Shown here: one piece after another, positions 19,184 to 57,514 of the stretch
Layout of the letters: each line of letters opens with the position of its first letter
How positions within the stretch are numbered: position 1 is the first letter of the stretch
Virus record (IMG/VR): IMGVR_UViG_3300029288_005873
Coordinates: 256,001 to 320,000 of that record
Source of the DNA: a virus
Lineage: Duplodnaviria; Caudoviricetes
Reading direction: 5' to 3' (one strand)
Length of the DNA: 64,000 nt
The notes under the pieces: generated by a model
Databases searched by the model: none
The model's input: only the letters and a program-made list of their open reading frames with translations
What the model was told of the DNA's origin: nothing
Program-made: the position numbers and the translations under genes

Positions 19184-19215
19184 TGTCGAAGGAAAATAGC
19201 GGAGATATTGGGGAA

Positions 19216-21592: not shown

Positions 21593-21604
21593 GGTTTTCT
21601 GTTT

Positions 21605-37710: not shown

Positions 37711-38616
37711 TCAATGATCTCCAAATTCGCCCTTGACATTTTCGTTTTGACCGGATATTTTTTCATCACCATGCCAAAGGGGGGATGAAACTGATCTTTC
37801 AAATACCCATTTATTCATCATATGCCACTTGGTAGTCTTCCTTACAACATCTATGGCATCATTTGAATCTGTACACCATCCTACAACATCTGTATTCTCT
37901 GTTCCTGTTAGCTGAGATAATAAAAGCATATCCATAGGACTAGCATTGAAAAGAGCCGGCATCTTTATTATATTATTACAGTCATTTTCTGCCATAAACC
38001 AAATCATAGAAGCTACATCATCAGCATAAGCATATCTTCTTTTTTCACAGCTCGGAGACCATCCATCTTCCATTTTACCTACAGCTATTCTCCTCAAAGC
38101 ATCCTCAAACCACCCATTGCCTCTGTTTCCAAAACAGGTTGGAAGTCTTAGGATTTTGCCTCCGGATTCGACTACCATAGATTCGACAAAATTCCACATC
38201 TTTCTATTCCCCATATCTGGAACATCTGTATCGGGAACGAGCCGTATGACTTTTGGTCTCTTTTGTAGATTGGAAAAACCTTTTGACGCATATCGACACG
38301 CTATTGATGTTGGAAGAACTATTTCATTAATTCCATCAGTAGATTCTGGAATTTTTGAAATAGGGGGAACAGACATCATTGTTCCTATTACTAAAATATC
38401 AGGTTTTTCCATCCATATCATGCGATCCATAAATTCAGCATCACCAGCATCACCAATGTGGAAAGAATGTTTTCTGTGCTGATATACTTTGCGAAAATCA
38501 AAGTTTTTAAGACAATCTACACTTGCGAACTCATAATCCTTTGTCCTATATAACATATAGCGCATAAGATTGGACATTAGAAATCCAGCCGAGCCGCAAA
38601 CAAGAATTTTTCTCAT
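37711..38616 (-). CDS. degenerate NAD-dependent epimerase/dehydratase (RmlB-like)
   Basis: KILVCGSAGFLM N-terminus; no YxxxK visible. Confidence 0.6.
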   Translation of the reverse strand: MRKILVCGSAGFLMSNLMRYMLYRTKDYEFASVDCLKNFDFRKVYQHRKHSFHIGDAGDAEFMDRMIWMEKPDILVIGTMMSVPPISKIPESTDGINEIVLPTSIACRYASKGFSNLQKRPKVIRLVPDTDVPDMGNRKMWNFVESMVVESGGKILRLPTCFGNRGNGWFEDALRRIAVGKMEDGWSPSCEKRRYAYADDVASMIWFMAENDCNNIIKMPALFNASPMDMLLLSQLTGTENTDVVGWCTDSNDAIDVVRKTTKWHMMNKWVFERSVSSPLWHGDEKISGQNENVKGEFGDH

Positions 38617-39392
38617 TTCTTCCCCCACAAAAAATGTCCATCACATTCCCCAAGTTGGAAAGGGGGTCTGTCATTTGTAACCTTCTGTCCAGTACCACGT
38701 CGATCAAGAGAAGATTGTAGTGCTATTTTTGCATTCAAGTCTTGTTCAGGTCTTGCGGCTCTAGATACTTGTCCGGGATGTTGACGGTAATGATATGTTA
38801 TCTTCCCTTCTAGACGTCCCATTCTCCCAGGAAATTTTTCATCAAGACGTAATGCTAAATCGTAATCAACTGCCGATGATAATGTATTGGAATAACCCTC
38901 AAACGATGAAAACCTATAAAATCTAAGTGGAAAAAAGCACATGTATTTAAGAAGCTTGGATCTATCAAATCCCCTATCAGACATTACATGTGGCATAATC
39001 CATGTTTTTCCAGAGTCATCAAAACAATCAAATGTTCCACAAGCAGCAACTAATTCAGGATTCTTTTGCATAAATTCGAGATAAGATGAAAGACAATCTC
39101 CTGGTATTATATCATCTCCACCAACATGACAGATAAAATCCGGATCCTGTAGAATTGAAATTGCCTCATTTTTTAATTTACCTATGAGTCCACATCTTTC
39201 ATTTTTACGTATTACAATACATCGACTATCGGATGCTTTTTTTGCAGTATCAAACGTATCATCATCAGAGGCATCATCAATAACAACTAAGTGCCAATTC
39301 TGAAAATCCTGAGCAATTAGGCTGTCTATTGCCTCACCTACATATTTTGATACATTATGGCAAGGCATATATATTCCTACAGACTTTTTCAT
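38613..39392 (-). CDS. glycosyltransferase family 2
   Basis: MPCHN, VIDDASDD, GGDD, VDYDLALR. Confidence 0.85.
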   Translation of the reverse strand: MKKSVGIYMPCHNVSKYVGEAIDSLIAQDFQNWHLVVIDDASDDDTFDTAKKASDSRCIVIRKNERCGLIGKLKNEAISILQDPDFICHVGGDDIIPGDCLSSYLEFMQKNPELVAACGTFDCFDDSGKTWIMPHVMSDRGFDRSKLLKYMCFFPLRFYRFSSFEGYSNTLSSAVDYDLALRLDEKFPGRMGRLEGKITYHYRQHPGQVSRAARPEQDLNAKIALQSSLDRRGTGQKVTNDRPPFQLGECDGHFLWGKK

Positions 39393-40378
39393 TATTCGAC
39401 CTTTGGAAGCTTTCCTTCCACTCCAAGAAGCTTACAGTCATGATTGACCATTATTTTAACAAGCTCATCAAACTTTACTTTGGGTTCCCATCCAAGTATA
39501 GATTTTGCTTTTGATGGGTCTCCACATAAACTCTCTACTTCAAGAGGGCGCATCATGAATCTATCAATCTCAACATATGTTCCCCAATCCTGTATTCCAG
39601 CATATGAGAAAGCTCTTTCAACAAATTCTCCCACAGTATGCATTTCTCCAGTTGCAAAAACGAAATCTTCAGGCTTTGGTCTTTGAAGCATAAGCCAGAA
39701 TCCTTTGACGAAGTCAGGAGCATAACCCCAATCCCTAGCCGCATCCAAGTTGCCAAGCCTAATCCTATGTGAAGGATCTTTAAGTATTTTTGCTACACCC
39801 ATTGATATTTTTCTTGTAACAAACAACGGACCACGCCTAGGTCCTTCATGATTATGAGTTATCCCAGCACAACAATACATTCCATATGCTTCACGATACA
39901 TCCTTACAAACCAATGAGCAGCCAATTTTGCAATAGCATACGGACTACGAGGTCTCATTATTGTATCTTCATTCTGAGGAGGAGGAGAATCTCCCCACAA
40001 TTCAGATGTACTAGCATGAAACAACCTAATAGAAGGAGCTAGTATTTTTATTGCTTCTAGAATATTCAGTACTCCTACCGCATCTATATTCATTGTAGCA
40101 ATCGGCTGATCAAAACTGGTACCAACATGAGACTGAGCACAGAGATTGAATATCTCATTTGGACGTCCACGTTGAATGATTCTGAAAACCGATGCTGAAT
40201 CAGTAATATCACCTTCTTCTATATCAATTTCTGACTCAAGGTGTGCGGCATTTCCAAGACTTCTTGTAGCATTTCTTCGAATCATGCCAATAACTCTATA
40301 ATCTTTCTCAAGAAGCAATTCAGCCATGTGTGAACCATCTTGTCCTGCTACGCCTGTTACTAAAGCAACTTTTTTCAC
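39392..40378 (-). CDS. gmd: GDP-mannose 4,6-dehydratase
   Basis: TGVAGQDGS, AQSHV, ASTSEL, PRSPYAIAK, NHEGPRRG, RDWG. Confidence 0.95.
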   Translation of the reverse strand: MKKVALVTGVAGQDGSHMAELLLEKDYRVIGMIRRNATRSLGNAAHLESEIDIEEGDITDSASVFRIIQRGRPNEIFNLCAQSHVGTSFDQPIATMNIDAVGVLNILEAIKILAPSIRLFHASTSELWGDSPPPQNEDTIMRPRSPYAIAKLAAHWFVRMYREAYGMYCCAGITHNHEGPRRGPLFVTRKISMGVAKILKDPSHRIRLGNLDAARDWGYAPDFVKGFWLMLQRPKPEDFVFATGEMHTVGEFVERAFSYAGIQDWGTYVEIDRFMMRPLEVESLCGDPSKAKSILGWEPKVKFDELVKIMVNHDCKLLGVEGKLPKVE

Positions 40379-41322
40379 TGATTTTCCTCCTTGTTTAGGA
40401 CATCAGCTTTATTCTTAAGCCACCACTCATATGTTTCAATCAATCCTTCTTGGAAAAAGGTTTTTGCCTCGAATCCAAACAGTTCTTTTGCTCGCCTAGT
40501 ATCTAAACATCTACGAGGTTGACCATCAGGTTTGAAAACATCCCATTCAATATTTCCATCAAAACCAACAGTATCTTTGATTTTTTCAGCAAGTTTTCGA
40601 ATAGTGTATTCTCGACCATTTCCCAAGTTTACCGGTTCAGAACCATCGTATCGTTCCAAAGCATCGACAATTCCACAAGCCGCATCTTTTACGTAGAGAA
40701 ACTCTCTAGAAGCCTTTCCAGTACCCCAAAGCTTGACAGAGGCTTTCCCTTCTTCTTTGGCTGTATCAAACTTTCTTATCATTGCTGGAATAACATGCGA
40801 ATCTTCCAGAGAGAAATTATCTCCAGGTCCATATAGATTTACAGGAAGTAAATATATACCATTAAATCCATACTGTTGACGGTATGCCTGAAGCATTACT
40901 AAAAGAGCTTTTTTTGCAATTCCATATGCGCCATTGGTTGGTTCAGGATATCCATTCCAAAGATCCTTTTCCATAAAAGGTACAGGAGTATTCTCAGGAT
41001 ATGCGCAAATTGTACCAACACATACGAATTTTTTTATACAACATGTTCTCGCTACATCTATGGTATTTATTCCCATTAACATATTATCTCTAAAGAATTC
41101 TCCAGGGCGCCTCATATTAGCCCCAATTCCACCACATTTTGCAGCAAGATGAATAACAGCATCAGGATGCATAACTCTCATAAATGCATTAATAGTATCA
41201 TATATGTCAGTCAAGTCATATCCAGATTGATCAATCACATCAACAATATGACCTCTATTCTTAAGAACTTCGACAACATGCTTTCCAAGAAAGCCGTTTC
41301 CTCCAGTTACAAGTACATTCAT
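40375..41322 (-). CDS. fcl: GDP-L-fucose synthase
   Basis: HLAAKCGGIGAN, GTICAYP, YGIAK, PVNLYGPGDNF, SHVIPA, WGTGKASREF. Confidence 0.93.
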   Translation of the reverse strand: MNVLVTGGNGFLGKHVVEVLKNRGHIVDVIDQSGYDLTDIYDTINAFMRVMHPDAVIHLAAKCGGIGANMRRPGEFFRDNMLMGINTIDVARTCCIKKFVCVGTICAYPENTPVPFMEKDLWNGYPEPTNGAYGIAKKALLVMLQAYRQQYGFNGIYLLPVNLYGPGDNFSLEDSHVIPAMIRKFDTAKEEGKASVKLWGTGKASREFLYVKDAACGIVDALERYDGSEPVNLGNGREYTIRKLAEKIKDTVGFDGNIEWDVFKPDGQPRRCLDTRRAKELFGFEAKTFFQEGLIETYEWWLKNKADVLNKEENQ

Positions 41323-41900
41323 TATTTTTCCTTTATTGCTTCAATATGTACAACTGGGTAGAAATTAATACTAGGTAAATCTCTAAAACTAGAGAAACCA
41401 TTTTTTGATAAAAGCGCTTTCAATGTCCTAGGTGTATATCCACAGAAATGATGTGACCATTTGTTTTTCTGCGTTCCATGTATCAATCGAATAGCCCAAT
41501 CCTCTTCCTCTTCTGTATTAGAATTTGCTAGAAGTTTTGCGGTTTCCTTTATGTCGGGAACACTAACTAAAAATTTACCACCGATCGAAAGTACGCGGAA
41601 TATATCAGAAACAATACGATCTACATCATATTTAGGCATATGCTCAAGAACCTGATACATAACAACTTCATCAACAGAACCATCTGAAAAAGGAAGAGGC
41701 TCCTCCATATTATGATCTAGGTCAGAAACAACACAATCATTTAATAATACACCAAAACCTCTTTTATAATAATGCTCATAATCAGTTGAGTTTCTTACCA
41801 TAATCTCAGTAGGACAGTTATATGACATATATTGCGGATCAGTATCTATATTAACATATCCAATAAGATATACCGGTCCACACCCAATATGAAGCTTCAT
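41322..41900 (-). CDS. SAM-dependent methyltransferase (glycan-locus type)
   Basis: KLHIGCG, LPFSDGSVD, VLEH, RVLSIGG. Confidence 0.8.
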   Translation of the reverse strand: MKLHIGCGPVYLIGYVNIDTDPQYMSYNCPTEIMVRNSTDYEHYYKRGFGVLLNDCVVSDLDHNMEEPLPFSDGSVDEVVMYQVLEHMPKYDVDRIVSDIFRVLSIGGKFLVSVPDIKETAKLLANSNTEEEEDWAIRLIHGTQKNKWSHHFCGYTPRTLKALLSKNGFSSFRDLPSINFYPVVHIEAIKEK

Positions 41901-42778
41901 TATTCTTCTCCATAATATTCATTAAATGTAATAAGATCGGAACTCCCCCAATCATGACCTTCATTTGCTACTACAATACCATTTCTTATATTATCTTGTA
42001 AAAGTATATAGTTATGTACCCAAAGATTATAGCCAAGATCTTTCCTTCTATCTATATGAATATTATCGTTAAAATCTTCTCTAGAATGGTCTTGATGTAT
42101 TCCTACTATTCCATGCTCAAACCTAGGGGTAACTCCAGAAAGTCTCATTCTATTTGAAAAATCATCGTCTTCACCACAAAGACCTCCTAAAAACCTTTCA
42201 TCAACTCCTCCGATATTTTCTATGTGTCGCTTTGCCACACACATAAAATACCAATATGCCGGCGGATGAGGAGGTCTTGTAACACATTCGTTTTTTGCTC
42301 CAGGTATCTGTAGAAGGTGAGACATAGGAAGTGTTTTTAGTCGACCCCATCCTTTTGCAATATAATCTGTACATGCAACATTTGCTCTGAAGACTAAACC
42401 ATAAAGACATTCCATTTTATCTTTAACAGACCATGCTATTTCAAGATTACTTGATGATTGTAGAGTTTCTGGTCCTGTTACAACAATAACCTCACCTCTT
42501 GAAAGCCTAAACCCAACATTATTAGTCAATACTGGAATAAAGCTTTTTACAGGCATAATACTTTTGCTCTTATCTATTTTTACAAATCTTATATTCAAAC
42601 CACTGGATATATTTTTACCATAACAAAGCTGACGAAGACTTTCCCTATCGGAATCGTCAACAATAATTATCTCAAAATCCTTTTTCGGCATAGTCTGAGC
42701 TGCCCAAGTATCAAGCGATCTTTCAAACAGATGAGTTCTGTTATCGCATGCAGAAATAACGACCGATATTTTCATCAC
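41900..42778 (-). CDS. glycosyltransferase family 2 (GT7-like C-terminus)
   Basis: ISVVIS, EIIIVDD, GGVDERF..LCGEDDDF. Confidence 0.8.
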   Translation of the reverse strand: MMKISVVISACDNRTHLFERSLDTWAAQTMPKKDFEIIIVDDSDRESLRQLCYGKNISSGLNIRFVKIDKSKSIMPVKSFIPVLTNNVGFRLSRGEVIVVTGPETLQSSSNLEIAWSVKDKMECLYGLVFRANVACTDYIAKGWGRLKTLPMSHLLQIPGAKNECVTRPPHPPAYWYFMCVAKRHIENIGGVDERFLGGLCGEDDDFSNRMRLSGVTPRFEHGIVGIHQDHSREDFNDNIHIDRRKDLGYNLWVHNYILLQDNIRNGIVVANEGHDWGSSDLITFNEYYGEE

Positions 42779-43533
42779 TTTACCCCATATGACTTTGCCA
42801 TCTTATCAATTCTGGAAATAAGTACAGGACAAAGATTGTCCTTAACTTCTACATTAGCTTTGAAAAGGGATTCTTGTGTCCCCGCATCAGACCACCATCC
42901 TCCAATCTCAAAAGTGTCGACAATTCCATCACGCACAAGCGTTCTATTGGCATCTGATATTTCCAACTCACCCCTTATAGACCTTCTAATTTTTGAAATA
43001 GCATCCCAAACCGCTGAAGAATATAGATAAGCCCCAGTAACGGCCAAATCACTTTTTGGATTATTTGGCTTTTCTTCAATATCAATAAGACACTTCATAT
43101 GGTCAACTTCAGCCACACCAAATCTACTAGGATCAGTAACCTTCTTAAGATATAACATACATCTTCCAGGAGTTTTTGTATGAAAATCTAAGAGATCCCC
43201 AAAAATGTTGTCCCCAAGAATCACAGCAATATCGTCTTGACCCGCAAAATCTTTACACAGCATTAAAGCTTCTGCTATTCCTCCAGCAGTATCCTGTACC
43301 TTGTATGTAAAGTTACATCCAAAGCGTTTTCCACTACCCAAAAGTTCGACAACTGACCCTAGATGAAAAAGACCAGATACTATACATATTTCTGTTATTC
43401 CATTCTCAAGCAACTGACTAAGTGGATAGAACAACATAGGACTTTTCCAAACAGGAAGTAGATGTTTGTTAGTCACTTTTGAAAGCGAGCCTAGTCTAGA
43501 TCCTGTTCCACCTGCAAGTATAATTCCCTTCAT
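42775..43533 (-). CDS. rmlA: glucose-1-phosphate thymidylyltransferase
   Basis: MKGIILAGGTGSRL, KHLLPV, LGDN, EEKP, RGELEISD, WSDAGT. Confidence 0.92.
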   Translation of the reverse strand: MKGIILAGGTGSRLGSLSKVTNKHLLPVWKSPMLFYPLSQLLENGITEICIVSGLFHLGSVVELLGSGKRFGCNFTYKVQDTAGGIAEALMLCKDFAGQDDIAVILGDNIFGDLLDFHTKTPGRCMLYLKKVTDPSRFGVAEVDHMKCLIDIEEKPNNPKSDLAVTGAYLYSSAVWDAISKIRRSIRGELEISDANRTLVRDGIVDTFEIGGWWSDAGTQESLFKANVEVKDNLCPVLISRIDKMAKSYGVK

Positions 43534-43565
43534 GACATTTCTCCAAAGCGCAAATAGCGCTACAT

Positions 43566-44498
43566 TCAAAAATAGTTCCTATTTTCTGAATACCATTTTA
43601 TAGTGTTCTCTAGACCTTTGTCCAAAGGAATTTGTGCTACCCATCCAAGCTCATTATTGGCTATGGAAGAATCTAGAAAATAACGGAAATCATGTCCTTT
43701 CCTATCCTCTACAAATTTTACAAGTGACCTAGATTTACCCATAATATCTAGAATCTTATATACCATATCAATATTTCGCTCTTCATGACCACTACCAAGG
43801 TTATATATTCTTCCAGATTTTCCATGCTCTAGTGTCGCCATGATTCCGAGACAATGATCTTCGACAAACATCCATTCCCTCTGATTAGTACCATTTCCAT
43901 AAATAGGAATATGTTTGTCAGATAAAGCATTCAAAATAACAACTGGAAGAAACTTCTCTTTATACTGTAAAGGTCCATAATTATTACAAGATCTAGTTAT
44001 TACAACATTCATTCCATATGTTTTTCCATAAGATTGTACAAGAACATCTGCAGCCGCTTTAGATGCAGAATACGGCGAACTTGGCTTTATCTGAAACAGG
44101 TTAGAGAAAGGCTGATCATCATGTTTCAAATCTCCATATACCTCATCAGTAGATACGAAAAGAAAACGGTCAATATTTCGTTTTCTTGCCTGCTCAAGCA
44201 GTTCAAATGTACCCATGAAATTGCTCAACATAAATGGTCTTGGAGAAGCTATACTATTATCTACATGTGATTCTGCAGCCATATGTATCACAGCATCAAT
44301 TTTTCCTATGGAATCAAAAACTTCGTCCAAAAATGATCCATCTGATATGTCTCCAACAAAAGTTCGACAAAGACCTAGTGCTGAAGGATCAGAGGCATAT
44401 CTCAAAGCATCAATACCCACAATTTCATGACTGCTAGAAAACATGCGAACGAAATTCTGTGGTATGAATCCGCAGTTTCCAGTCACAAGGATTCGCAT
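43566..44498 (-). CDS. rmlB: dTDP-glucose 4,6-dehydratase
   Basis: AAESHVDNS, STDEVYG, PSSPYSASK, NNYGP, DRKGHDFRY. Confidence 0.93.
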   Translation of the reverse strand: MRILVTGNCGFIPQNFVRMFSSSHEIVGIDALRYASDPSALGLCRTFVGDISDGSFLDEVFDSIGKIDAVIHMAAESHVDNSIASPRPFMLSNFMGTFELLEQARKRNIDRFLFVSTDEVYGDLKHDDQPFSNLFQIKPSSPYSASKAAADVLVQSYGKTYGMNVVITRSCNNYGPLQYKEKFLPVVILNALSDKHIPIYGNGTNQREWMFVEDHCLGIMATLEHGKSGRIYNLGSGHEERNIDMVYKILDIMGKSRSLVKFVEDRKGHDFRYFLDSSIANNELGWVAQIPLDKGLENTIKWYSENRNYF

Positions 44499-45577
44499 TC
44501 ACCAACCTCCATAACAGACTTAAGTACATGGTCTATTTCATCATCGGTCATCCAAGGATTGAATGGAAGAGAAATTACAGTTTCGGAAAATTCTTTAGCA
44601 TTTGAAAATAAGCCGGCGCCTGGGCGCCCCTCAACGGTCTCCATTAGGTGAAAAGGATAATGTTTTGAGGTCTCAACTTCACGCTTGGCTAGCATGGCAA
44701 CAACCCTATCACGGTTATTTGACATTATGGGGAAAAGATGAGGCAACGCTCCTTTTCTCCATGCGACCATTCTGAATGGAGTTTTAAGTAGGGCTTCTCG
44801 ATATTGCTCAAGCATTTGAATCCTTCTTTTTGCTTGAGCAGGAAAAAGCTGAAGCTTCTTGATTAGGATGGCACACTGTATTTCATCCATGCGACTATTC
44901 ATGCCAATCATTCTACCCATCCTATTCCTAGTCTCTTGACCATAAAATCTCAATTCTCGTATTGCTTTTGCCATCTGTTCATCACATGCGATAACAGCTC
45001 CACCATCACCCATACATCCAAGGTTTTTTGTGGGATAAAAACTTAGAGCTCCCGACATACCAAAAGTTCCAAGAAGATTTTCATCAAATGTGGCTCCAAA
45101 ACTTTGGGCACAATCCTCAACAAGAGAAATTCCCCTTTTAACACAATGATATTTTATCGTTTCTATGTCGGCTGGATTTCCATACAGATGTACAGGTATA
45201 AAAGCTTTAACATCAAGATTTTTTAATGTTGATGCGTTTGTACACATTGTCATACCAAAATCAACATCAACATATACTGGAATAGCACCGATCATTTTAA
45301 CAGCCACAGCTGTCGGTATGGCTGAAAAAGCAGGAATTGCGACCCTATCTCCATATCCTATACCCAATGCTTTAAGAGAAAGAGCTAGAGCATCTGTTCC
45401 ACTTCCAACAAGGACAACTGGACGATTGAACATTTCAGAAAGACGTATTTCAAGTTCTGTTGCTTTTGGACCAAATAGAAAATGTCCAGACCGTATGACA
45501 TCCTCAATATCTTTCATTAAACCAAGTCCAATAAGTATGTCAGCCTCGCGGTCTAAATTTAGAAAAGGAACTCTCAT
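44483..45577 (-). CDS. fdtB: DegT/DnrJ PLP aminotransferase (FdtB/QdtB-like)
   Basis: SGTDAL, PVHLYG, EDCAQS, SFYPTKNLG, GDGG, NSRMDEIQ. Confidence 0.85.
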   Translation of the reverse strand: MRVPFLNLDREADILIGLGLMKDIEDVIRSGHFLFGPKATELEIRLSEMFNRPVVLVGSGTDALALSLKALGIGYGDRVAIPAFSAIPTAVAVKMIGAIPVYVDVDFGMTMCTNASTLKNLDVKAFIPVHLYGNPADIETIKYHCVKRGISLVEDCAQSFGATFDENLLGTFGMSGALSFYPTKNLGCMGDGGAVIACDEQMAKAIRELRFYGQETRNRMGRMIGMNSRMDEIQCAILIKKLQLFPAQAKRRIQMLEQYREALLKTPFRMVAWRKGALPHLFPIMSNNRDRVVAMLAKREVETSKHYPFHLMETVEGRPGAGLFSNAKEFSETVISLPFNPWMTDDEIDHVLKSVMEVGECESL

Positions 45578-45972
45578 TTCTTCACCTCTTCCAGAAACGT
45601 GGAGTAATCTCTGATGTAGTCATTTTCATCATATAACTCCGATGCGAGTACAATACATACCGTACTAGGATAAAGTGTTAAAGTACACCAAACTAACGGA
45701 GGAACATGAAAACCTACATTTGGACTACGTAGGTATATGGCAGTATTTCTCTGTCCATCATAATCGAGATCTACATTCATACCACCACTAGCCAGGATTA
45801 TAAATTGATGACACTTTCTATGCGCATGACCTCCCCGAGAAATCCCTTGCGGAGGAACATCCGTCATATAGAAAACCCTCTTGATCTCGAAAGGAACTAT
45901 GATGCCGCTTTCTACCCAGCGCAGATTGCCGCGTTCGTCAAAAACGCCTGGTAGTTCTATGGTATAAGCCAT
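45574..45972 (-). CDS. fdtA: dTDP-4-keto-6-deoxyhexose 3,4-ketoisomerase (FdtA/QdtA cupin)
   Basis: DERGNL, PFEIKRVFY, RGGHAH, YIRDY. Confidence 0.9.
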   Translation of the reverse strand: MAYTIELPGVFDERGNLRWVESGIIVPFEIKRVFYMTDVPPQGISRGGHAHRKCHQFIILASGGMNVDLDYDGQRNTAIYLRSPNVGFHVPPLVWCTLTLYPSTVCIVLASELYDENDYIRDYSTFLEEVKK

Positions 45973-47314: not shown

Positions 47315-47315
47315 T

Positions 47316-48251: not shown

Positions 48252-48259
48252 AGTGCTCC

Positions 48260-49147: not shown

Positions 49148-49156
49148 GTTTCTCTC

Positions 49157-49822
49157 CTAGAGACACTTTCTCGCGACAACACAACTAACAGCTCGACTAT
49201 CCCAATCGAATCTTTGCTCAATAAAACATCCAAGATCAGAAAGTGTTTTTGTAAATTCCGCATAATCCATAACCATGCGCGGCTGCGTCCTTCCAGCATA
49301 TGTGGGACAGATAATCATCTCAGTAGGTTTGTCATTTGCATCATGAAAAAATACCTTATGGATAACTATCCAATCAGAAGAAAGCTCAACCATACGGGAA
49401 AGGAAACTTTTCCAATCAACAAAATGTTCTATAGATCCACACGCCATTACAACATCCCAAAGTTTTTCTGGATGAAAATCCATAATATCGGCAACATGAA
49501 AATCCCCAGAAGGATAATTTCGTTTTGCTCGTTCGCACATATGCGATGATATATCCATTCCTTCGTATATAAATCTTACATCTAATCCCAAACTAGACAT
49601 ATAAACAGCCTGCCAGCCTGCTCCGCAACCTATGTCTAGGCATGATAACATGCTGGTTTTCATATCTTTCTGATCAATTAATTTCAAAGCCTTGGCTAAA
49701 GTGTCGAAATATGGGTATTGTCCCACATTTCCGCGCTCGAAATAAGTGCGATTCATATCGTCATGTTCGGCAGCCACTTCGGGCAAAGCCCACCAAAAAT
49801 AATCAGTTATTTCGTTTGCCAC
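49157..49822 (-). CDS. class I SAM-dependent methyltransferase
   Basis: CLDIGCGAG, GMDIS, ADI, SIEH. Confidence 0.85.
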   Translation of the reverse strand: MANEITDYFWWALPEVAAEHDDMNRTYFERGNVGQYPYFDTLAKALKLIDQKDMKTSMLSCLDIGCGAGWQAVYMSSLGLDVRFIYEGMDISSHMCERAKRNYPSGDFHVADIMDFHPEKLWDVVMACGSIEHFVDWKSFLSRMVELSSDWIVIHKVFFHDANDKPTEMIICPTYAGRTQPRMVMDYAEFTKTLSDLGCFIEQRFDWDSRAVSCVVARKCL

Positions 49823-50657
49823 AATGGCCTCCTGAAGATTTTTTGATCAGTTCAAAATATGGATCGTAGACGAGACGTCTATCACTCGCAGTGTGTTTCC
49901 ATCCAGTGGGATAATATGAATCTGGTCCAGTTATAGAGAATTCATGATAATGGTAACACACAAGATTATATTTGCCATCAATAATTAGCTTACCATCTAT
50001 AGTCTTCGATATCGTGTGCCGTCCTATTCCCCATGGTCCCAGATTTATTCCAGGATGAGGACAAGAGAGGGCTCCCTTAAATCTTTCTGGCTGATCATGT
50101 AATATGTTTAACCACCCCTGATCTGCACAACGTCCATCAGGAAGAGTGACCCAGTAACACCATTCTATACAACGGTCTTTCCACCATTCCAAGAATTCTC
50201 TACAGTTACCATCATTTCTATATCCAAGAATACCAACATTAAATCTAACGCCAGATCTGGGGGGTTCAAACCCATGGTCTGTAACCATAAGGGAATGATT
50301 CCCCATAATATTTTCAATCTCTTCAGGACTTGACCAAAAAGCCATATCAGCATCAGTGTAAAATACTGTATCGATCCCAAATTTATCAAAAAGGAACATC
50401 GGAAGCACAGGGGTTATCGTGGCATAATATTCCTTTGGTTGTCTATTACCTTTTGCCTTCAACAGATCCGGACAATATTCTTCTACATCAGAAAGACAGA
50501 TAGGAATAACACCATCAAGTTTTTTGGCCTGCTCTAAAACATTAACATCCAATGCAAGTACAAAAAGTTTTGAATTTGGACTTTCATGTAATAAAGTACT
50601 CCAACAGGTCCAACCCTTTGCCGCATATGCGCTATCAAAATATGTACAGAAGTTCAT
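49803..50657 (-). CDS. putative glycosyltransferase (GT-A, DxD), paralog 1
   Basis: FCTYFD, YTDADM, FNVG, WW..RC.EWC, ADQGWL, NLGPW, YHYH. Confidence 0.75.
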   Translation of the reverse strand: MNFCTYFDSAYAAKGWTCWSTLLHESPNSKLFVLALDVNVLEQAKKLDGVIPICLSDVEEYCPDLLKAKGNRQPKEYYATITPVLPMFLFDKFGIDTVFYTDADMAFWSSPEEIENIMGNHSLMVTDHGFEPPRSGVRFNVGILGYRNDGNCREFLEWWKDRCIEWCYWVTLPDGRCADQGWLNILHDQPERFKGALSCPHPGINLGPWGIGRHTISKTIDGKLIIDGKYNLVCYHYHEFSITGPDSYYPTGWKHTASDRRLVYDPYFELIKKSSGGHCGKRNN

Positions 50658-51496
50658 GCTAGTGTTCCTTTCTTTGCCAGTAACATCATATTGTGATAAG
50701 GCTCATATATATTACTCATGTTCCATGGGGAAACTTCCCATCCTGTATCATTCACACACTTTCCAACAATGTCCTTATATCCGTGAAAATGATAACATAT
50801 TAGGTTGTGTCGACAATCTAGGACTATTTTGCCATTGGAAAACGAGGTAGGATGCATGGATAAATTCCAAGGTCCAAGATTTATTCCAGGATGCGTGCTA
50901 ACCTTTACACCAGAAAATCTATTTGGATTGTTATGTATTATAGATAAATATCCTTGATCTGCACAACGTCCATCAGGAAGAGCGCGCCATTCACACCATT
51001 CGAGACAACGTTCCTCCCACCATTTCAAAAAACTAATACCATCTGGACTTTTTCTATATCCGAGAATTCCAACATTGAAGAAACCAGCCCCTCCAGCCAT
51101 AGCAATCGGGTTTTCGTGCGGAGTAACCAATAGAGAGTTGCTACCCATTTCGCTAGATATTTCATCTACAGAAGAAAAAAAAGCCATATCAGCATCAGTG
51201 TAGAATACTGTATCAAGACCAAATTTGTCAAAAAGAAATTGTGGAAGTATAGGCGTTATTGTTGCATAATATTCCTTAGGCTGTCTTGATCCTTTTATGT
51301 TTAATAAAGATGGTCTATATTCTTCTATATCTTTCAACATTATTGGAATTACACCGCGCCATTTAGATACAAGACCGGCAACCACATCATCCATACAAAG
51401 AACAAAAAGACGGACCGATGAATTCGAAGTCAAAGTATGATGGCACACTTTGGCTTTTGTGGCATATGCTGAATCGAAATATGTACAGAAATCCAT
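50654..51496 (-). CDS. putative glycosyltransferase (GT-A, DxD), paralog 2
   Basis: Same motifs as 49803..50657. Confidence 0.75.
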   Translation of the reverse strand: MDFCTYFDSAYATKAKVCHHTLTSNSSVRLFVLCMDDVVAGLVSKWRGVIPIMLKDIEEYRPSLLNIKGSRQPKEYYATITPILPQFLFDKFGLDTVFYTDADMAFFSSVDEISSEMGSNSLLVTPHENPIAMAGGAGFFNVGILGYRKSPDGISFLKWWEERCLEWCEWRALPDGRCADQGYLSIIHNNPNRFSGVKVSTHPGINLGPWNLSMHPTSFSNGKIVLDCRHNLICYHFHGYKDIVGKCVNDTGWEVSPWNMSNIYEPYHNMMLLAKKGTLA

Positions 51497-51499
51497 GAC

Positions 51500-54400
51500 C
51501 TATCCTTGAAGAAGTTTTTTTACAAAAGGAGTATTAGACCTTTCCATCGGACGAACTAGAGAATTTCCAGCCCTCCCAACACGTATTACAAGATCGGAAG
51601 TAGACCTTTGTCCAGTAAGTGGAACGCGCCTAAGAAATGAATTCTGACCATGCACATCAAGATGCTCTGACCCTTCACCTGCCACAAAAATATGAGAATT
51701 GGTAAAATGGCATCTAATACGCAAAGCAGCTTCAATGATCCTATTGGGTTCACAGCCCTTAACAGGAATTAATAGAACCGTAGGATACGGAAAACGAGAA
51801 GATTCTCCAGGTTTCCAGGCTGCAAGGATATATTTCATATCATGCATAAGTTTTGAATGAGCTATACCGTTGCTTCTTCTAAGTTCATCATTCGTACAAT
51901 TATGCATAAGATTACAATGAGTACATGCTATTATCCTTCCACCAGTTCTTAGAATACGCATATCAAGATCAGTATCCTGTGAATAATATGGATAATCCAT
52001 GTTAATCCCATCAAATTTTTTCAAGGTCTCTGTATACATACAACCAACTGTTGGAAAATATATACCACTATCCATCCTTACAGTATATACATCTCCCCAT
52101 GAATTTTTTACACAAAATCCACCCATATCTATTGGTGATGATTCATCCATAACAAGACACATATCTGAAAGTGCCGCCCCCTGGGGAACTATATCATCAC
52201 TTAGCCAACAGATGTATTTTCCTTTTGCTATGGCAAGAGCCTCATTGAAGGCTTGAGTAAAGCTTGTTCTTTTGCCAGAAAATATTGGAATTATTCGCTT
52301 GTCCTCACCAGATCGTTTGCGCAACCATTCCTGCGTTCCATCATTGGAACCAGCATCATTGACAATTATTTCTACCGAGTGCAAATTAGAAGATACCAAT
52401 GACGAATCAACCGCTTGTTGTAGCTGGTTTAGACGATTGTGAGTTCCTATAAATATCGTAAGATCTACAGGTTTTCCATTAGCATTATTGAGGAAATTTG
52501 CCCTTCTACTATTCATGCTTCGCATTAGATCAAATACAGCATTTCGAAAAGCTGCTGGATTTTCTAAAGGCAAAACTCCAGGATCCCAAGACCATGTGCC
52601 GATAAGAGACATTGAAAAATATGGCTGTAGAAATGAATCATATCTAACGGTCAAATGATCCACACAAAAACGTAAATCAATCATTCTCTGATCTACATAT
52701 TCCCCTCCAGGATGCCATGCTATAGCGAGCATATTAGGAAGCTTTCTACGCAGATCAAGCATAAGATCTCGCCAAGGAAGACCATCAGCCTGTTCATCAA
52801 GGAAAAGTAATAGAATATCTGGGTTAAAACGCAAAATCTTAGCAACAAGATCTCTACATTCTGTGAATGGTATAGTTAAGAAGTCCATATCATGTAGGGT
52901 CGTTTTTGACATAAGATCCATAGGAGGATCCCTCATGATACACAATGTCCGCTTGAATGTGTAGGAAATTCTGTTTTTTGGAAAGTTTGGCATAATTGCC
53001 TCAAAACATCCAATACGGAGTGCTAGTTCTTTAATACGTAGAACGCGCGAGTGAGAAAGGGCTGTTTTAGCACCATTGTCTCCGATTTTTTTTGCCTTTG
53101 TAGGATCTGCGGAAAGCTGTGCAACCAAAGACGCACTTTCTTCTGGAGAATCAAACAAGAGAAGATCATGCCCATCTTCGCACCATTCAATAATTTCCAT
53201 AGATCGCTTTGCGATCACAGGCACACCACTTGCCATAAGCCCAAAGAGTTTTCGCATAGGACCTTCTACAAAAACGATCGACTTGGCATCAAATAGAGCT
53301 GAGCGACATTCCGTATCACCATGTGCCGCTAGGCGTATATAAGCAGTATTTGGCAAGTGTGTTCGAATTGTTTCTAAATAAGTTTCTGAAGAACTTTCGG
53401 CAAAGATTACAGCATCGCATTTCTGTTCTCTATCTGGGGGGTTAAATCCGACAGCCCCAGCGTCCCAAAGCTCGACATTGAAGCATCCAGCAGAACGATA
53501 AATAGCAAGCTCAATTTCACTTTCCACCAAAGCTAAATCAACAGCTCGAAGGACAGCTAAAGCATTTTTGTCAAAAACAGGCCAACCCGGAGAAAGCCAG
53601 GCTGTAATAAAAACATTGGGAATAGAAAACCTAATATCATTTATTGTTGTTGTTGTAATTGCGGTCGGACGACCAAGATGAAAATGTACAATATTAGCAC
53701 CGCGTTCAACTGCAATTTTACTGAGATTTATAAGATTTCCGTAAACAGGTATTCCTTCGCACCGTATTCCATTCGCTATAAATGCGTCTTTTGTGACAAT
53801 TTCGTCATCAAGTTCAGATACCACTAGTACTTTTGTATCATGTCCAGAAAATCGTGAATATTGAAGATTGTTTGGAATAGGAGAAAGTTCAGCCTTATGT
53901 ATTTGAATTGGTGCTGCTGTCGTCGTCATATGTGGTCTGTTTCGCTTCACCAAACGCATTTGCGGTTTTTCTGGAGCAGAATCTGTGGCTGCCGAAACAG
54001 GTTCAGAAGACGATGATGCAATCATTTTAGGTTCTTGGACAGGGGTGTCTTGCGGAAGAACCTCAAAAGCAATTCGTTTTACTAACAGGGATCCCGTACC
54101 ACCAGGAGATCTCCAAAGTCTGAGCATAATTGGTATATTTGGTGGAAAATCACTGGTTTTTAATTGAAGTTCAAACGTACTCCATGCGGCGCTTTCACAA
54201 AGCATAGGTTGATGGGGAAAATCAAAACTTCGATTTGCATAAAAGTTACAGAAGAGTTTCCCATTCCCACTTTCCCTTTTAAGATCAAGTTGAAGGCGGT
54301 AAACTGAATTGGGTTCCACTTTTGCTGGCACAAACAAGACAGATTTTTCGCCTTCCATTGATTGGCATTTTACGCCACGTTCGTCCCTTTTTGCTACAAG

Positions 54401-54889
54401 ACTTCTGCCGCGCCAAAACTGTTGGTCAAAGCTGTTCATTTCCCACCAGTCCTCCATCTGCTCAAGGCAGTATTTTTTATCAAACGCACTAATATGACGC
54501 GGCTCTGGCATGGGTCCAACACCGCGTGGAAGCTTTACCGCATCAACTTGTTCAATAATTACAATACCAGAACCAGGAGTTCTTGATATTTTGATGAACG
54601 CCAGATTAATAGGTGTGGCAACATTTCCTGTTGTAACGTCTATCTCAAACACATGCCCATTTGGTGGGCAGTTAAAAGAAACCTGTGCAAATTGCTGTTC
54701 ATTTTCCGCACAAATCTCAAAACAAAGAATGCGCCCATCAGTATTTGGGTTTGAGGCCATAACCCTACAACGGTACACAGAATTTTTCTCAAATTCTACG
54801 GGAACGTATAGGCTGGAATCACAATCAAGACCAAAACAGCCATCGTCCATGTGTAGAAAATTTCCCCCCCACAAGCAAGGATCTGACAT
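51500..54889 (-). CDS. modular glycosyltransferase: two CBM-like repeats + GT-B-like region + GT2
   Basis: Duplicated VP...E.NSVYR modules; MASGVPVI; IGTHNR, VNDAGSNDGT, WLSDD, QDTDL. Confidence 0.75.
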   Translation of the reverse strand: MSDPCLWGGNFLHMDDGCFGLDCDSSLYVPVEFEKNSVYRCRVMASNPNTDGRILCFEICAENEQQFAQVSFNCPPNGHVFEIDVTTGNVATPINLAFIKISRTPGSGIVIIEQVDAVKLPRGVGPMPEPRHISAFDKKYCLEQMEDWWEMNSFDQQFWRGRSLVAKRDERGVKCQSMEGEKSVLFVPAKVEPNSVYRLQLDLKRESGNGKLFCNFYANRSFDFPHQPMLCESAAWSTFELQLKTSDFPPNIPIMLRLWRSPGGTGSLLVKRIAFEVLPQDTPVQEPKMIASSSSEPVSAATDSAPEKPQMRLVKRNRPHMTTTAAPIQIHKAELSPIPNNLQYSRFSGHDTKVLVVSELDDEIVTKDAFIANGIRCEGIPVYGNLINLSKIAVERGANIVHFHLGRPTAITTTTINDIRFSIPNVFITAWLSPGWPVFDKNALAVLRAVDLALVESEIELAIYRSAGCFNVELWDAGAVGFNPPDREQKCDAVIFAESSSETYLETIRTHLPNTAYIRLAAHGDTECRSALFDAKSIVFVEGPMRKLFGLMASGVPVIAKRSMEIIEWCEDGHDLLLFDSPEESASLVAQLSADPTKAKKIGDNGAKTALSHSRVLRIKELALRIGCFEAIMPNFPKNRISYTFKRTLCIMRDPPMDLMSKTTLHDMDFLTIPFTECRDLVAKILRFNPDILLLFLDEQADGLPWRDLMLDLRRKLPNMLAIAWHPGGEYVDQRMIDLRFCVDHLTVRYDSFLQPYFSMSLIGTWSWDPGVLPLENPAAFRNAVFDLMRSMNSRRANFLNNANGKPVDLTIFIGTHNRLNQLQQAVDSSLVSSNLHSVEIIVNDAGSNDGTQEWLRKRSGEDKRIIPIFSGKRTSFTQAFNEALAIAKGKYICWLSDDIVPQGAALSDMCLVMDESSPIDMGGFCVKNSWGDVYTVRMDSGIYFPTVGCMYTETLKKFDGINMDYPYYSQDTDLDMRILRTGGRIIACTHCNLMHNCTNDELRRSNGIAHSKLMHDMKYILAAWKPGESSRFPYPTVLLIPVKGCEPNRIIEAALRIRCHFTNSHIFVAGEGSEHLDVHGQNSFLRRVPLTGQRSTSDLVIRVGRAGNSLVRPMERSNTPFVKKLLQG

Positions 54890-54901
54890 AATTACCGCCT
54901 C

Positions 54902-57166
54902 CTATGTAAACATACTGTCATATAGGTCTGATATTCCCGCATTATCCTTTCCCATTAATTCTTTCGCAAAATCAAATGCGTGTTTGGACATAACTGTATT
55001 TTGTTCAGGATTACACAGTTTCTTTATAGCGTCTACATATCTATCAGTACCTCCTCGCACTATAAAGCCATTAACCCCGTCCAAAACAACCTCAGGAATT
55101 GCTCCAACATTGGAAGCGACAACAGGAACTCCGGAGGCAAAGGCTTCCAAAATCGTCAAAGGCAAACCTTCCATTGCCGAAGGCAAAAGAAAAGCATCAA
55201 AGGCTGCGTAGAATCGTTCCGTATCAGTGCGACGACCGACAAATATTACATTCCCCAAACTACTAGCCATTTTCTTCAGAACGTTTTCTTGAGGACCGCT
55301 TCCAACTATAACAAATACAGCCTCAGGCAAGGCTCTAGCGCATGATAACACTATTGGAATATTCTTCTCAGGCGAAAGACGTGCTATTGTGCCAACAACA
55401 AAACGATTTGTTGGACAACCAATTTCAGTAAGAACCTGTTTGTTTTTTGGAAGACCGAATTTTTCCCATGCAATCTGCTGTGGCAAATATCGTACGTTTT
55501 TATTACCCTTTTTGGCAAGCTTTGTACAGATTGTCTCAGATACGCCAACAATCATAGAAACATTGCGTCTGGTTGCAACCTTCGCCATAGAATCTTGCCA
55601 AATTAGATCACTGTGAACCGTCTCTACAATCTTGCCACCCCATCCTTCACTCAATATCCTAAGCAACAGGGCATAAACCTGTAGACTGTTGTAAAAATGA
55701 ACTATGTCATATTTTTCAACTTCTATCAGACATTTAAGGGCATTTCCCTCACCTCGATGACTTAGGTTCTCCAAATTAACCCCAAGGTCACCAAAAAGGG
55801 AAACCAATTCGTTCGACATTCCAAGAGGAAAAGCAACCGTTGGTTCATACTTCTCTCTATCAAGGCGCAAAATAGCTTCGCGTACCCAAACCTCTCCTCC
55901 ACCAGCCATATTATATGGAATAACATATAGTATTTTGCGCTTACGTGTCTTTGGAATAAGGTTGTGTTTTTGTGCTAAACACTCTTCCGCAAGATCCGTT
56001 ATCTGTTTTGCAGCAGCAGTCCATGAAAATTTATTAACGGTTTCGTTTGCAGCATCTAATACTCTGGCTTTTTCTTCAGCCACATTGTTATAGACGCGAC
56101 GCATAAGCTCAGAACAATGTTTTGTACTAGGATCACCAACAACAGCGTCTTTTGAATGTGTCCAATATTGCATACTTGGTGGAGCCTTCATCTCACCAGT
56201 ATTAACAAGTATTGAATTTTTATCATTTAGAAAATCTAACTGTCCACCATGTCGTGGTGCTATAACCACATTCCCACATGCCAAAGCCTCAAGCAATGGT
56301 AGTGCAAAACCTTCACAAGAACTCATGCTAACTACCGCATCACAAGCAGTATATAATGATCCTATATCGTCAACAAAAGATGTGACTATCTCTATTTCTG
56401 GAGGATTAGCCCTACCCTTCATTTTATTTTCCAAAATAGCACGCACATCAACCTCAAAAGGTTTGTCTGGAGCAGGCTTTAGAAATTTGGTTTTCATAAC
56501 CAAACACACATCATCATCACCAGTGAAAGCATCAAGATACGCTTCAAGAACACGATCATGGCATTTCCTGGCATGTGGTATTGCGTTATGGAGAAACTTA
56601 ACCCTTTTCTTTGTGTGTAGTGGAAATGGAGCAATTCCTGGGTGGAATATTCTACGATCTACTCCATGAGGGACAACAACAAGTTTGGAACTAGGAATGC
56701 CGTTGTTTAAGAAGATGTCTGATGAATATTGGCTAGATGGAAGTATATAATCTACCCCCCGGTGAAATTCTTGCCAACCACACGGAAGTACTGAACTCTC
56801 AAAATTCCAAATAACCATTTTACTTCTAGATTCACCAAAAAATCTACGCGGAATCTGGTAAAGTATAGTATATGCTAATTCTAAGTCATAAGGTCTATTT
56901 ATATCATTTATATCATCAGGACATTTCTTGCGATCTATAGATACTTCTGATCCATCATCATCCAGAAACACAAGTTCCGGCTGAGAAGGATGCCCGTGAT
57001 ATCCTGGAAGCAGAAGATGTCTAAGGTCATCAGGAAAATGCTCTAACCCATTTGTGGATTTTATATGAACACTATGTCCAGCATTGTTCATTTCTCTAGC
57101 CAAGGCTTGTGTAACAAGGCTCCACGAATGAAGTGTAGCCGCCATGCCATGCCATCTAATCTTCAT
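54902..57166 (-). CDS. double GT4 (GT-B) glycosyltransferase
   Basis: VVPHGVD...EGFALPLLEALACG; GGGE...ARLSPEKN...EGLPLTILEAFASG. Confidence 0.88.
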   Translation of the reverse strand: MKIRWHGMAATLHSWSLVTQALAREMNNAGHSVHIKSTNGLEHFPDDLRHLLLPGYHGHPSQPELVFLDDDGSEVSIDRKKCPDDINDINRPYDLELAYTILYQIPRRFFGESRSKMVIWNFESSVLPCGWQEFHRGVDYILPSSQYSSDIFLNNGIPSSKLVVVPHGVDRRIFHPGIAPFPLHTKKRVKFLHNAIPHARKCHDRVLEAYLDAFTGDDDVCLVMKTKFLKPAPDKPFEVDVRAILENKMKGRANPPEIEIVTSFVDDIGSLYTACDAVVSMSSCEGFALPLLEALACGNVVIAPRHGGQLDFLNDKNSILVNTGEMKAPPSMQYWTHSKDAVVGDPSTKHCSELMRRVYNNVAEEKARVLDAANETVNKFSWTAAAKQITDLAEECLAQKHNLIPKTRKRKILYVIPYNMAGGGEVWVREAILRLDREKYEPTVAFPLGMSNELVSLFGDLGVNLENLSHRGEGNALKCLIEVEKYDIVHFYNSLQVYALLLRILSEGWGGKIVETVHSDLIWQDSMAKVATRRNVSMIVGVSETICTKLAKKGNKNVRYLPQQIAWEKFGLPKNKQVLTEIGCPTNRFVVGTIARLSPEKNIPIVLSCARALPEAVFVIVGSGPQENVLKKMASSLGNVIFVGRRTDTERFYAAFDAFLLPSAMEGLPLTILEAFASGVPVVASNVGAIPEVVLDGVNGFIVRGGTDRYVDAIKKLCNPEQNTVMSKHAFDFAKELMGKDNAGISDLYDSMFT

Positions 57167-57218
57167 AATTTTCCTTTATTGGTCTAGCGAGGAGATCTTT
57201 CCATTGTCATAAAGTTTC

Positions 57219-57398
57219 CTATTGTGGATCTTGATTTTTTTCCTTGCTCTGTCTAAACAATGTCGCTATCATCTCGCGAACAACCGCAGTGACAGTTTTG
57301 TAGTTTTGACGAGCATATTCCACAAGAAAATCATGAAGCTCTGTCTCGAGACGCAGGTTGATCTGTCGGCGATCTACATTCTTGTTTGGTTCTCTCAT
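57219..57398 (-). CDS. ribbon-helix-helix (Arc/CopG-like) DNA-binding protein, 59 aa
   Basis: Hand translation MREPNKNVDRRQINLRLETELHDFLVEYARQNYKTVTAVVREMIATLFRQSKEKNQDPQ*; SD GGAG; shorter than any ORF in the track. Confidence 0.7.
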   Translation of the reverse strand: MREPNKNVDRRQINLRLETELHDFLVEYARQNYKTVTAVVREMIATLFRQSKEKNQDPQ

Positions 57399-57458: not shown

Positions 57459-57478
57459 TAATGCTCAACTATTGATAG
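57459..57478 (-). promoter_or_regulatory. putative phage promoter TATCAATA-N5-GCATT
   Basis: Heads the RHH-glycan operon; 19/20 identical to 3018-3037. Confidence 0.65.
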
Positions 57479-57514
57479 ATTTCTGAACACAAAAGTACAG
57501 AAATTTGAGATAAA

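Follow-up and report, generated by a model that had tools for sequence, protein, structure and literature searches.

We analysed a 64,000-nucleotide stretch of DNA (which we refer to as the window), comprising bases 256001-320000 of one 441,904-bp IMG/VR virus record (IMGVR_UViG_3300029288_005873), in which a tightly packed block of glycosyltransferase (GT), nucleotide-sugar and methyltransferase genes follows a set of virion genes. The record comes from an uncultured phage, is 100% complete according to CheckV and has a GC content of 43.9%; it is a phage genome and not a cellular chromosome. Nearly all of its long open reading frames (ORFs) lie on the minus strand, and transcription therefore runs from high to low coordinates. 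Between positions 37711 and 57166 (positions are those of the window unless given as genome positions) there are 19 minus-strand ORFs, with gaps of -20 to +12 nucleotides (nt). A first-pass annotation of the same DNA had taken these two positions as the limits of the locus, and all of the genes that it named lie on the minus strand where it had placed them; the unit, however, runs further upstream, to a small ribbon-helix-helix (RHH)-like gene of 59 amino acids (aa; 57219-57398) and to a promoter-like motif (57461-57483). The operon is better set at 37711-57398, with 19 enzyme genes and one small regulator-like gene, 20 genes in all, which are near-contiguous or overlapping except for a 52-nt gap after the RHH-like gene. 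Pfam, NCBIfam and PDB searches bear out the gene content that had been read from the sequence, namely two nucleotide-sugar pathways, nine GT genes (about 11 GT domains) and three methyltransferases. All of the locus features described below are on the minus strand.

The first enzyme gene to be transcribed (54902-57166) encodes a double GT4 of 754 aa with two GT-B modules (PF00534, PF13439 and PF20706, the last named 'GT4 in conflict systems'), in both of which the EX7E motif is intact (E285-E293 and E666-E674). Its family comprises approximately 100 homologue clusters at identities of at least 45%, on contigs of up to 460 kb, below which there is an abrupt step down to 38% or less; this huge-phage clade has the double GT4 as a hallmark. 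About one-fifth of the homologues carry an in-frame LAGLIDADG intein of approximately 430 aa (for example, L020:6528-9995, L015, L018 and L030 among the related loci, and P0020, P0026, P0059 and others among database proteins), and the copy in the window is without it. The intein sits inside the EX7E motif of the first module (EGF | C...HN | CLPLLE). We know of no intein previously reported in a glycosyltransferase, although no literature search aimed at one was made.

The next gene (51500-54889) encodes a modular enzyme of 1129 aa in which Pfam matches and structure prediction outline two carbohydrate-binding module (CBM)-like beta-jelly-roll domains (residues approximately 10-135 and 150-280), a linker, a GT-B segment (approximately 540-615) and a GT2 domain (811-939). 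The AlphaFold (AF2) model of residues 1-335 contains the two jelly-rolls, with a per-residue confidence (pLDDT) of about 90 over residues 160-280. The second of them aligns with CBM35, CBM6, CBM36 and CBM22 structures at a Z score of 12.8 and a root mean square deviation of 2.5-2.8 A over 117-125 residues (VIA), the top structural matches being mostly carbohydrate-binding modules, and distant relatives keep this second domain and not the first. As modelled, a CBM-like module joined to GT-B and GT2 domains is what would be expected of an enzyme that would grip a primed glycan while extending it; the lectin domains of mucin-type GalNAc transferases hold glycans in a like manner.

Two nucleotide-sugar pathways are encoded among the remaining genes. 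One consists of Gmd, a GDP-mannose 4,6-dehydratase (39392-40378; PF16363, 1e-114; TIGR01472, 1e-109), and a GDP-L-fucose synthase-like Fcl (40375-41322; NF047922, 2e-86, below cut-off). Both have these equivalogs as their top NCBIfam matches, under the curated cut-offs in each case (366.6 against 415 bits and 290.2 against 500 bits), and the pair would convert host GDP-mannose to a GDP-6-deoxyhexose, probably GDP-L-fucose, although the product may be a different 6-deoxyhexose. The other pathway, of the Fdt/Qdt type, is encoded by four adjacent, overlapping genes: a short-form glucose-1-phosphate thymidylyltransferase, RmlA (42775-43569; PF00483; TIGR01207, 1.9e-58, below cut-off); a dTDP-glucose 4,6-dehydratase, RmlB (43566-44498; TIGR01181, 369.8 bits, above cut-off); a pyridoxal phosphate-dependent DegT-type C-3 aminotransferase resembling FdtB and QdtB (44483-45577; PF01041, 4e-78), whose best solved relatives are the C-3 aminotransferases WbpE, DesV and QdtB; and a dTDP-4-keto-6-deoxyhexose 3,4-ketoisomerase of the FdtA/QdtA family (45574-45972; PF05523, 9e-39), with QdtA as its best solved match (1.7e-27), ahead of FdtA (2e-22). 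The predicted product of this route, starting from glucose-1-phosphate, is a dTDP-3-amino-3,6-dideoxyhexose, Qui3N or Fuc3N according to the configuration at C-4. Pfam and NCBIfam searches found no acyl- or formyltransferase domain in any protein of the locus, and hence no counterpart of the N-acyltransferase FdtC/QdtC, which yields the usual N-acetyl sugar; a methyltransferase may take its place. A divergent protein of 305 aa with a short-chain dehydrogenase/reductase (SDR) fold is encoded last in the operon (37711-38628; weak Epimerase and RmlB matches at the N-terminus, and no YxxxK motif seen in its sequence); it is 30-36% identical to proteins of three related loci (L006, L007 and L017) and is the last gene before tubulin in four relatives.

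Seven further GT genes accompany the double GT4 and the modular enzyme. A GT-A protein of 280 aa, which we call paralog A (50654-51496), is GT8/Nucleotid_trans-like, with a DxD motif in TDADMAF; its Atlas feature and structure neighbours carry PF01501 and PF03407, and it has no Pfam match and nothing useful from the PDB sequence search. Paralog B (49803-50657; 284 aa) is 52% identical to it. A probable GT-A/GT2-like transferase of 295 aa (48260-49147) matches PF00535 at 22.9-23.7 bits, near the cut-off, and a GT47/exostosin-like transferase of 315 aa (47316-48263) matches PF03016 at 39.6 bits, above the cut-off, and RXYLT1_C. A protein of 233 aa (45972-46673) probably has a GT-A fold: its low-confidence AF2 model (pLDDT 53) has GT-A folds as all of its best matches (Z 6-8.3), the closest cluster in the Atlas bears the name glycosyltransferase family protein, and a PDB sequence search with it gave nothing useful. 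The probable GT-A transferase of 292 aa (41900-42778; weak GT2 similarity; EpsD-type N-terminus, 7e-10) is 47-51% identical to its counterparts in five distant loci (L006, L007, L013, L017 and L020) and occurs in most of the related loci that cover its position, and a GT2 glycosyltransferase of 259 aa (38613-39392; PF00535, 2.6e-22) is 50-54% identical to its counterparts in L006, L007 and L017. The second class I S-adenosylmethionine (SAM)-dependent methyltransferase of the locus (41322-41900; 192 aa; Methyltransf_11/23) is shared with the same three loci at 49-54% identity. A third, methyltransferase-like protein of 219 aa (46655-47314) has a COMT match at E 0.005; its ORF was listed as 46655-47500, and its real start is the ATG at 47314, so that the hydrophobic N-terminus of the longer frame, a candidate membrane segment, is an artefact of the overlap and of an upstream alternative start.

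The first class I SAM methyltransferase (49157-49822; 221 aa; Pfam Methyltransf_25/11) invites a comparison with the dTDP-mycaminose and desosamine pathways, in which TylA1/A2, Tyl1a, TylB and TylM1 act. A thymidylyltransferase, a 4,6-dehydratase, an FdtA-family 3,4-isomerase and a C-3 aminotransferase follow the same reaction order there as in the locus, which like them encodes no N-acyltransferase. The phage methyltransferase resembles TylM1 (E 0.004) and DesVI (E 0.03) weakly and in the SAM-binding region only; it is possibly an aminosugar N-methylase, on weak sequence similarity. The acceptor in those pathways is a macrolide, and here it is not.

No protein of the locus has a credible transmembrane segment. 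The first-pass annotation had called for such a prediction, and had seen no Wzx, Wzy, ABC exporter, initiating transferase, ligase or multi-membrane-span protein in the locus; the absence of the carrier and export components holds there and extends to the whole genome. Neither PF02397 (Bac_transf) nor PF00953 (WecA/MraY-type) has a match in the 441,904-bp genome, where the same searches matched 10 and 12 of 14 control genomes, respectively, and PF01943 (Wzx) and PF04932 (Wzy_C/WaaL) likewise have no match genome-wide while matching most of the control genomes. No ABC ATPase scores above the cut-off anywhere in the genome (the best ABC_tran match, at 22.4 bits, falls in an 82-aa frame), and no ORF of the genome has seven or more hydrophobic segments. 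Every GT2 and GT4 match in the genome falls inside the locus. Because initiating transferase, Wzx, Wzy/WaaL and ABC exporter are all missing from the genome, the phage itself cannot run a lipid-carrier pathway. Its few multi-membrane-span proteins are M50 protease-like, apart from one EamA-like protein of 112 aa (genome 33301-33639). The latter, with four hydrophobic segments and a match of 25.8 bits (below cut-off), lies 260 kb from the locus and is the sole transporter-like candidate of the genome; in length it is comparable to SMR exporters and to the small subunits of undecaprenyl-sugar flippases.

The position of the locus directly downstream of virion genes, as first proposed, is confirmed. 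The genes transcribed ahead of it encode the tail sheath, a tape-measure-like protein and Baseplate_J (genome 325980-329234), followed by large fibre-like proteins of 2307, 942 (with a dockerin-like segment), 488 and 389 aa (glycine-rich), and then by the locus. PHROG and Pfam scans of the upstream proteins of 389, 488, 2307, 530, 697 and 755 aa found no match, and their virion role is assigned from their position and from the neighbouring sheath, baseplate and tape-measure matches. The 389-aa protein (57515-58684), the last gene before the glycan operon, consists mostly of glycine-rich GGxGG runs with one DGY tripeptide, and is possibly a flexible fibre or whisker. Downstream of the locus are a tubulin/PhuZ-like gene, helicases, a helicase loader, DnaB, a PrkA/YeaH/SpoVR-like trio, a sigma factor and ribonucleotide reductase; we found no obvious terminator between the operon and these tubulin and replication genes (the terminator scan of the locus was uninformative). 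A sigma-70 promoter scan of the locus gave no more hits than shuffled sequence (67, against 61 expected).

The operon begins with the RHH-like gene, so called from its sequence pattern, and the motif AAAA-CTATCAAT-N6-GCAT (57461-57483; this copy listed as AAAT-CTATCAAT-N6-GCAT), 79 nt upstream of it. The RHH-like protein has no Pfam match, and its best PDB match, the viral RHH protein AvtR, is not significant (E 0.56); its gene stands directly upstream of the double GT4 in nine of nine related loci. The 8-mer CTATCAAT is the most gap-enriched of the genome, and the full motif has 14 copies on the gene strand (at 57461-57483, 21575-21597, 19166-19188 and 3019-3041 of the window, at 351274, 374680, 364394, 370200, 387130 and 393859 of the genome, and at others). 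One copy lies 75 nt before the tail sheath gene, one before a decoration/major-head gene pair whose second member encodes the major head protein (phrog_2522, 3e-75), and others before a tail-protein-like gene of 560 aa and a DGY-rich gene of 753 aa. In six relatives the motif, or a close variant of it, precedes the RHH-like gene by 37-118 nt, and the full motif lies approximately 350 nt upstream in L001; five related loci have the full motif, each time as its sole copy in approximately 20 kb. Because the operon shares this motif with head and tail genes, we infer that it is co-expressed with the late structural genes. A phage-specific factor probably recognises the motif, and the genome includes a sigma factor gene (25515-26123).

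Related loci were collected from IMG/VR and JGI metagenomes of several different projects, with tblastn as an additional search. They share a frame, found in every related contig with enough sequence, that consists of the 942-aa protein, sometimes the 488-aa protein, the RHH-like gene, the double GT4, the modular GT and then variable genes; the loci that extend far enough (L006, L007 and L017) continue with the GT-A gene, the methyltransferase, sometimes Fcl and Gmd, the GT2, the divergent SDR, tubulin and helicase. Divergence of the double GT4 keeps pace with that of the neighbouring 942-aa protein (identities across relatives of 68 and 72%, 57 and 58%, 52 and 53%, and 44-58 and 46%, respectively). 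The block of approximately 8 kb from the GT8-like paralogs to RmlB is found only in this phage and its closest relative, and partly in one other locus, and RmlA has no match in any related locus; given this patchy presence, the aminosugar block behaves as a cassette within a conserved frame. A megablast search with the whole locus found no match among 50,697 phage records.

The tripeptide DGY is strongly enriched in the proteins of the tail region, with 32 occurrences against 3.0 expected; the permuted tripeptides YGD and GDY occur at expectation there, and the enzymes of the locus contain no DGY. Five aligned homologues of the 942-aa dockerin-bearing protein (60180-63008 in the window), 46-73% identical, have exactly five DGY each (0.24-0.30 expected per homologue), and just one alignment column is common to all five. 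Since the count is constant while the sites turn over, the tripeptide behaves like a sequon and unlike a fold element, as far as sequences can tell. We sought relatives without the locus for comparison, and every related contig of sufficient length had the double GT4 after the fibre genes. The DGY pattern supports a modified virion surface and does not imply a chemical tie to the operon. Elsewhere in the window (14471-19132), three consecutive genes encode proteins of 753, 384 and 420 aa with two, three and eight DGY (0.23 expected for the 420-aa protein), none of which has a PHROG or Pfam match; CTATCAAT motif copies include one before the first gene of this trio, and the three probably add to the set of virion-surface proteins, although their genes lie at a distance from the tail block.

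We give about an even chance to the reading that the locus is an autonomous cytoplasmic operon with which a huge phage decorates its own virion proteins during late expression. The choice of virion proteins as the target follows from the position of the locus, the conservation of its core across the clade at the rate of a structural protein, the motif shared with head and tail genes and the DGY-rich virion proteins; the intein in the EX7E motif is counted on the same side, because inteins usually occupy conserved, selected sites. The first-pass annotation had proposed a viral product, resembling those of giant viruses, that is built without a lipid carrier on a virion protein or possibly on DNA. 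The viral origin, the missing carrier route and the likeness to giant viruses all stand, and a virion acceptor is, on circumstantial evidence, the best-supported choice; DNA is disfavoured, as discussed below. In the mechanism that we propose, glycan synthesis would be started by the double GT4 on a phage acceptor that is itself conserved. The 1129-aa enzyme would then grip the primed glycan through its CBM-like domain while its GT-B and GT2 domains lengthen it; these two enzymes, conserved across the clade next to the regulator-like gene, would carry out the conserved steps. The variable enzymes (the GT8-like pair, the GT47-like protein and the GT-A proteins) would then add lineage-specific outer sugars, including the aminosugar, and the methyltransferases would place O-methyl groups on sugars, possibly N-methyl groups on the aminosugar, or would cap the chains. 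As candidate acceptors we regard the fibre, baseplate and decoration proteins, given their strong enrichment in DGY.

A more specific version of this scheme, which we regard as tentative and rather doubtful in its entirety, concerns the whole clade of phage G-like huge phages (approximately 250-460 kb). Their late, autonomous protein glycosylation would be initiated by the double GT4 on a short surface sequon, DGY (tyrosine-linked), of tail, fibre and decoration proteins and extended by the CBM-guided transferase, with swappable cassettes (here possibly an N-methylated 3-amino-3,6-dideoxyhexose, fucose and O-methyl groups) giving rise to 'serotypes'.

Several observations weigh against a glycosylated virion. 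The phage is uncultured and known from its genes alone, and no glycan has been seen on its proteins. No homology to a proven protein O-glycosyltransferase is shown, GtfA/Gtf1 being one among many tied GT4 matches to the double GT4; the CBM-like fold, as modelled, would fit a polysaccharide product equally well; and copies of the promoter-like motif are also found before an HNH endonuclease gene and before a PhoH/terminase-like one, the class of the motif having been inferred from few downstream genes. Soluble GT2, GT4 and GT8 enzymes, moreover, also use host-supplied undecaprenyl-linked intermediates, so that the missing carrier genes are compatible with a product on the host envelope. GT-rich gene sets of large cyanophages are conventionally taken as modifying the host cell wall (PMC12801897). 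In a remodelling of this kind, the phage GTs would extend undecaprenyl-linked or lipid A-core intermediates of the host, whose own flippase, polymerase or ABC exporter would display an altered O-antigen, capsule or exopolysaccharide (EPS), for example to block superinfection or alter adsorption. O-antigen and EPS loci typically have GT2, GT4, GT8-like and GT47-like enzymes, Gmd/Fcl, the Rml genes and methylation of chain ends; the low GC content of the locus (39.1% against 43.9% for the genome, with single genes down to 34-36%) fits this explanation, low GC being typical of polysaccharide loci; the predicted CBM-like domains could bind a polysaccharide; and the four-span, 112-aa EamA-like protein, below cut-off as it is, has the size of a small flippase subunit. 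In large cyanophages, a set of 13 GTs and 22 cell-wall genes has been interpreted as serving envelope modification (PMC12801897). We nevertheless consider envelope remodelling unlikely. The core enzymes are conserved at a structural-protein rate across several metagenome projects, and the hosts of these relatives would offer differing lipid-linked acceptors and exporters, which counts against it; the operon has a fixed place after the fibre genes and a motif of the head and tail type, and late expression would leave little time for envelope turnover; and the phage lacks the initiating transferase, flippase, polymerase and ligase.

Two further alternatives assume a different acceptor. Other soluble acceptors would be a non-virion phage or host protein, a free oligo- or polysaccharide, or a small molecule that is glycosylated for host takeover or defence evasion, and we hold this to be improbable. 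The match of the double GT4 to PF20706 ('GT4 in conflict systems') and the continuation of the operon into the tubulin and replication genes speak for it, as does the fact that the proposed virion acceptors remain candidates; no candidate acceptor or pathway logic is visible for it, and the clade-wide linkage to fibre genes together with DGY on virion proteins is better explained by a virion target. Least probable of all, and to our minds barely credible, is hypermodification of DNA, in which the GTs would place an oligosaccharide on a hydroxylated or hydroxymethylated base and so evade restriction. Phage GTs akin to lipopolysaccharide and teichoic-acid enzymes do add mono- to trisaccharides to 5-hydroxymethylcytosine, from clusters that can adjoin structural genes (bioRxiv 10.1101/2023.12.21.572611), poly-arabinosylated 5-hydroxycytosine exists (PMC13326640), and four or five matches to C5-cytosine methyltransferases occur in the genome. 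The hydroxyl handle for such glycans comes from a ThyA homologue (PMC13326640) or from a methyltransferase with a TET-like dioxygenase (5mYOX/TET; bioRxiv 10.1101/2023.12.21.572611). In the genome we found no match to the ThyA-family hydroxymethylases and hydroxylases (PF00303) and none to TET/JBP (PF12851), for which the control genomes were equally silent. The thymidylate enzymes are ordinary (a tandem ThyX and Tmk), the C5-methyltransferases lie approximately 180-300 kb from the locus, and nine GT genes, two sugar pathways and three methyltransferases go far beyond any described DNA glycan.

Chemically shown virion glycosylation by phage enzymes is, to our knowledge, confined to a few mycobacteriophages with small gene sets, and the GT-rich regions of large phages have, as far as we know, mostly been dismissed as host-surface genes. 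In the mycobacteriophages Che8, Corndog and Myrna, phage GTs glycosylate the capsid and tail tube (Freeman et al. 2023, as reported in PMC12363180 and PMC12619734). Compared by gene content, the two systems share soluble phage GTs encoded beside structural genes, and the glycan of the mycobacteriophages is built in the cytoplasm on their own capsid and tail proteins without a lipid carrier, the scheme that we propose here. They differ in scale, Che8 gp110 and Corndog gp38 being described as 'the two essential glycosyltransferases' for capsid glycosylation (PMC12363180), whereas the 20 genes of the present locus also supply two nucleotide-sugar pathways and include three for methyltransferases, one for a CBM-bearing multidomain GT and one that is regulator-like. 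They probably differ also in target, which would be peripheral tail or fibre proteins here and is the C-terminal tails of capsid and tail-tube proteins in the mycobacteriophages.

The comparison with giant viruses that was drawn at the outset is apt: the fibril glycosylation clusters of Megavirinae comprise 6-33 genes (PMC10117803), and polysaccharides have been described from Mimivirus (PMC8456856). Again in terms of gene content, both combine viral pathways for rare amino and deoxy sugars of bacterial type with many GTs in one cluster of clade-specific content, and the giant-virus product coats the outer layer of the particle independently of the host glycosylation machinery. Giant viruses, unlike this phage, are eukaryote-infecting Nucleocytoviricota, their sugars are viosamine, bacillosamine, Qui2NAc and others, and the arrangement of a conserved core with a swappable cassette at a fixed site between fibre genes and tubulin is particular to the phage locus. 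Large T4-like cyanophages of more than 200 kb (S-SCSM2R, S-SCSM1 and P-SSM2) also have many GTs (13 in S-SCSM2R) and sugar-nucleotide enzymes; these sets are less compact, contain Kdo and PgaA-type genes as well and have been assigned to modification of the host surface (PMC12801897), in contrast to the single coupled operon, placed after the tail genes, that is a hallmark of the present clade.

O-antigen assembly that depends on an ABC transporter uses multi-domain GT4 polymerases, with chains terminated by methylation and an exporter that carries a CBM. The locus resembles it, by analogy, in its tandem-GT4 enzyme, in methyltransferases that could cap chains and in a CBM-type domain that could read the glycan, and differs in that Wzm/Wzt, initiating transferase and ligase are missing genome-wide and in that the CBM-like domains are on the transferase and not on a transporter. 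The system is of a known kind, to which mycobacteriophage virion glycosylation and the giant-virus clusters belong; its scale, its clade-wide core-plus-cassette architecture, its CBM-bearing transferase and the intein are new.

If the more specific, clade-wide scheme set out above holds, it would be a bacterial-virus counterpart of giant-virus glycosylation. The locus is a clean, complete and clade-wide case of a virus that has everything but the lipid-carrier route, with candidate acceptors encoded next door. It makes testable the targets of huge-phage glycosylation, the identity of the chain-starting enzyme, and whether sugar diversity follows phage lineage as it does in giant viruses, and it is a possible source of new soluble protein glycosyltransferases and rare-sugar pathways.

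Three minor observations remain. Between positions 40001 and 44000, the genes for RmlB, the GT-A protein and the methyltransferase have a GC content of only 34-36% (43.9% in the genome), which points to acquisition of part of the locus from a source of lower GC. The tandem ThyX (10228-11724) is a protein of 498 aa with two Thy1 stretches, and its gene adjoins those for the endolysin and thymidylate kinase. At the ends of the genome, the first and last 145 bases differ, and the last 100 bases recur at positions 46-145.

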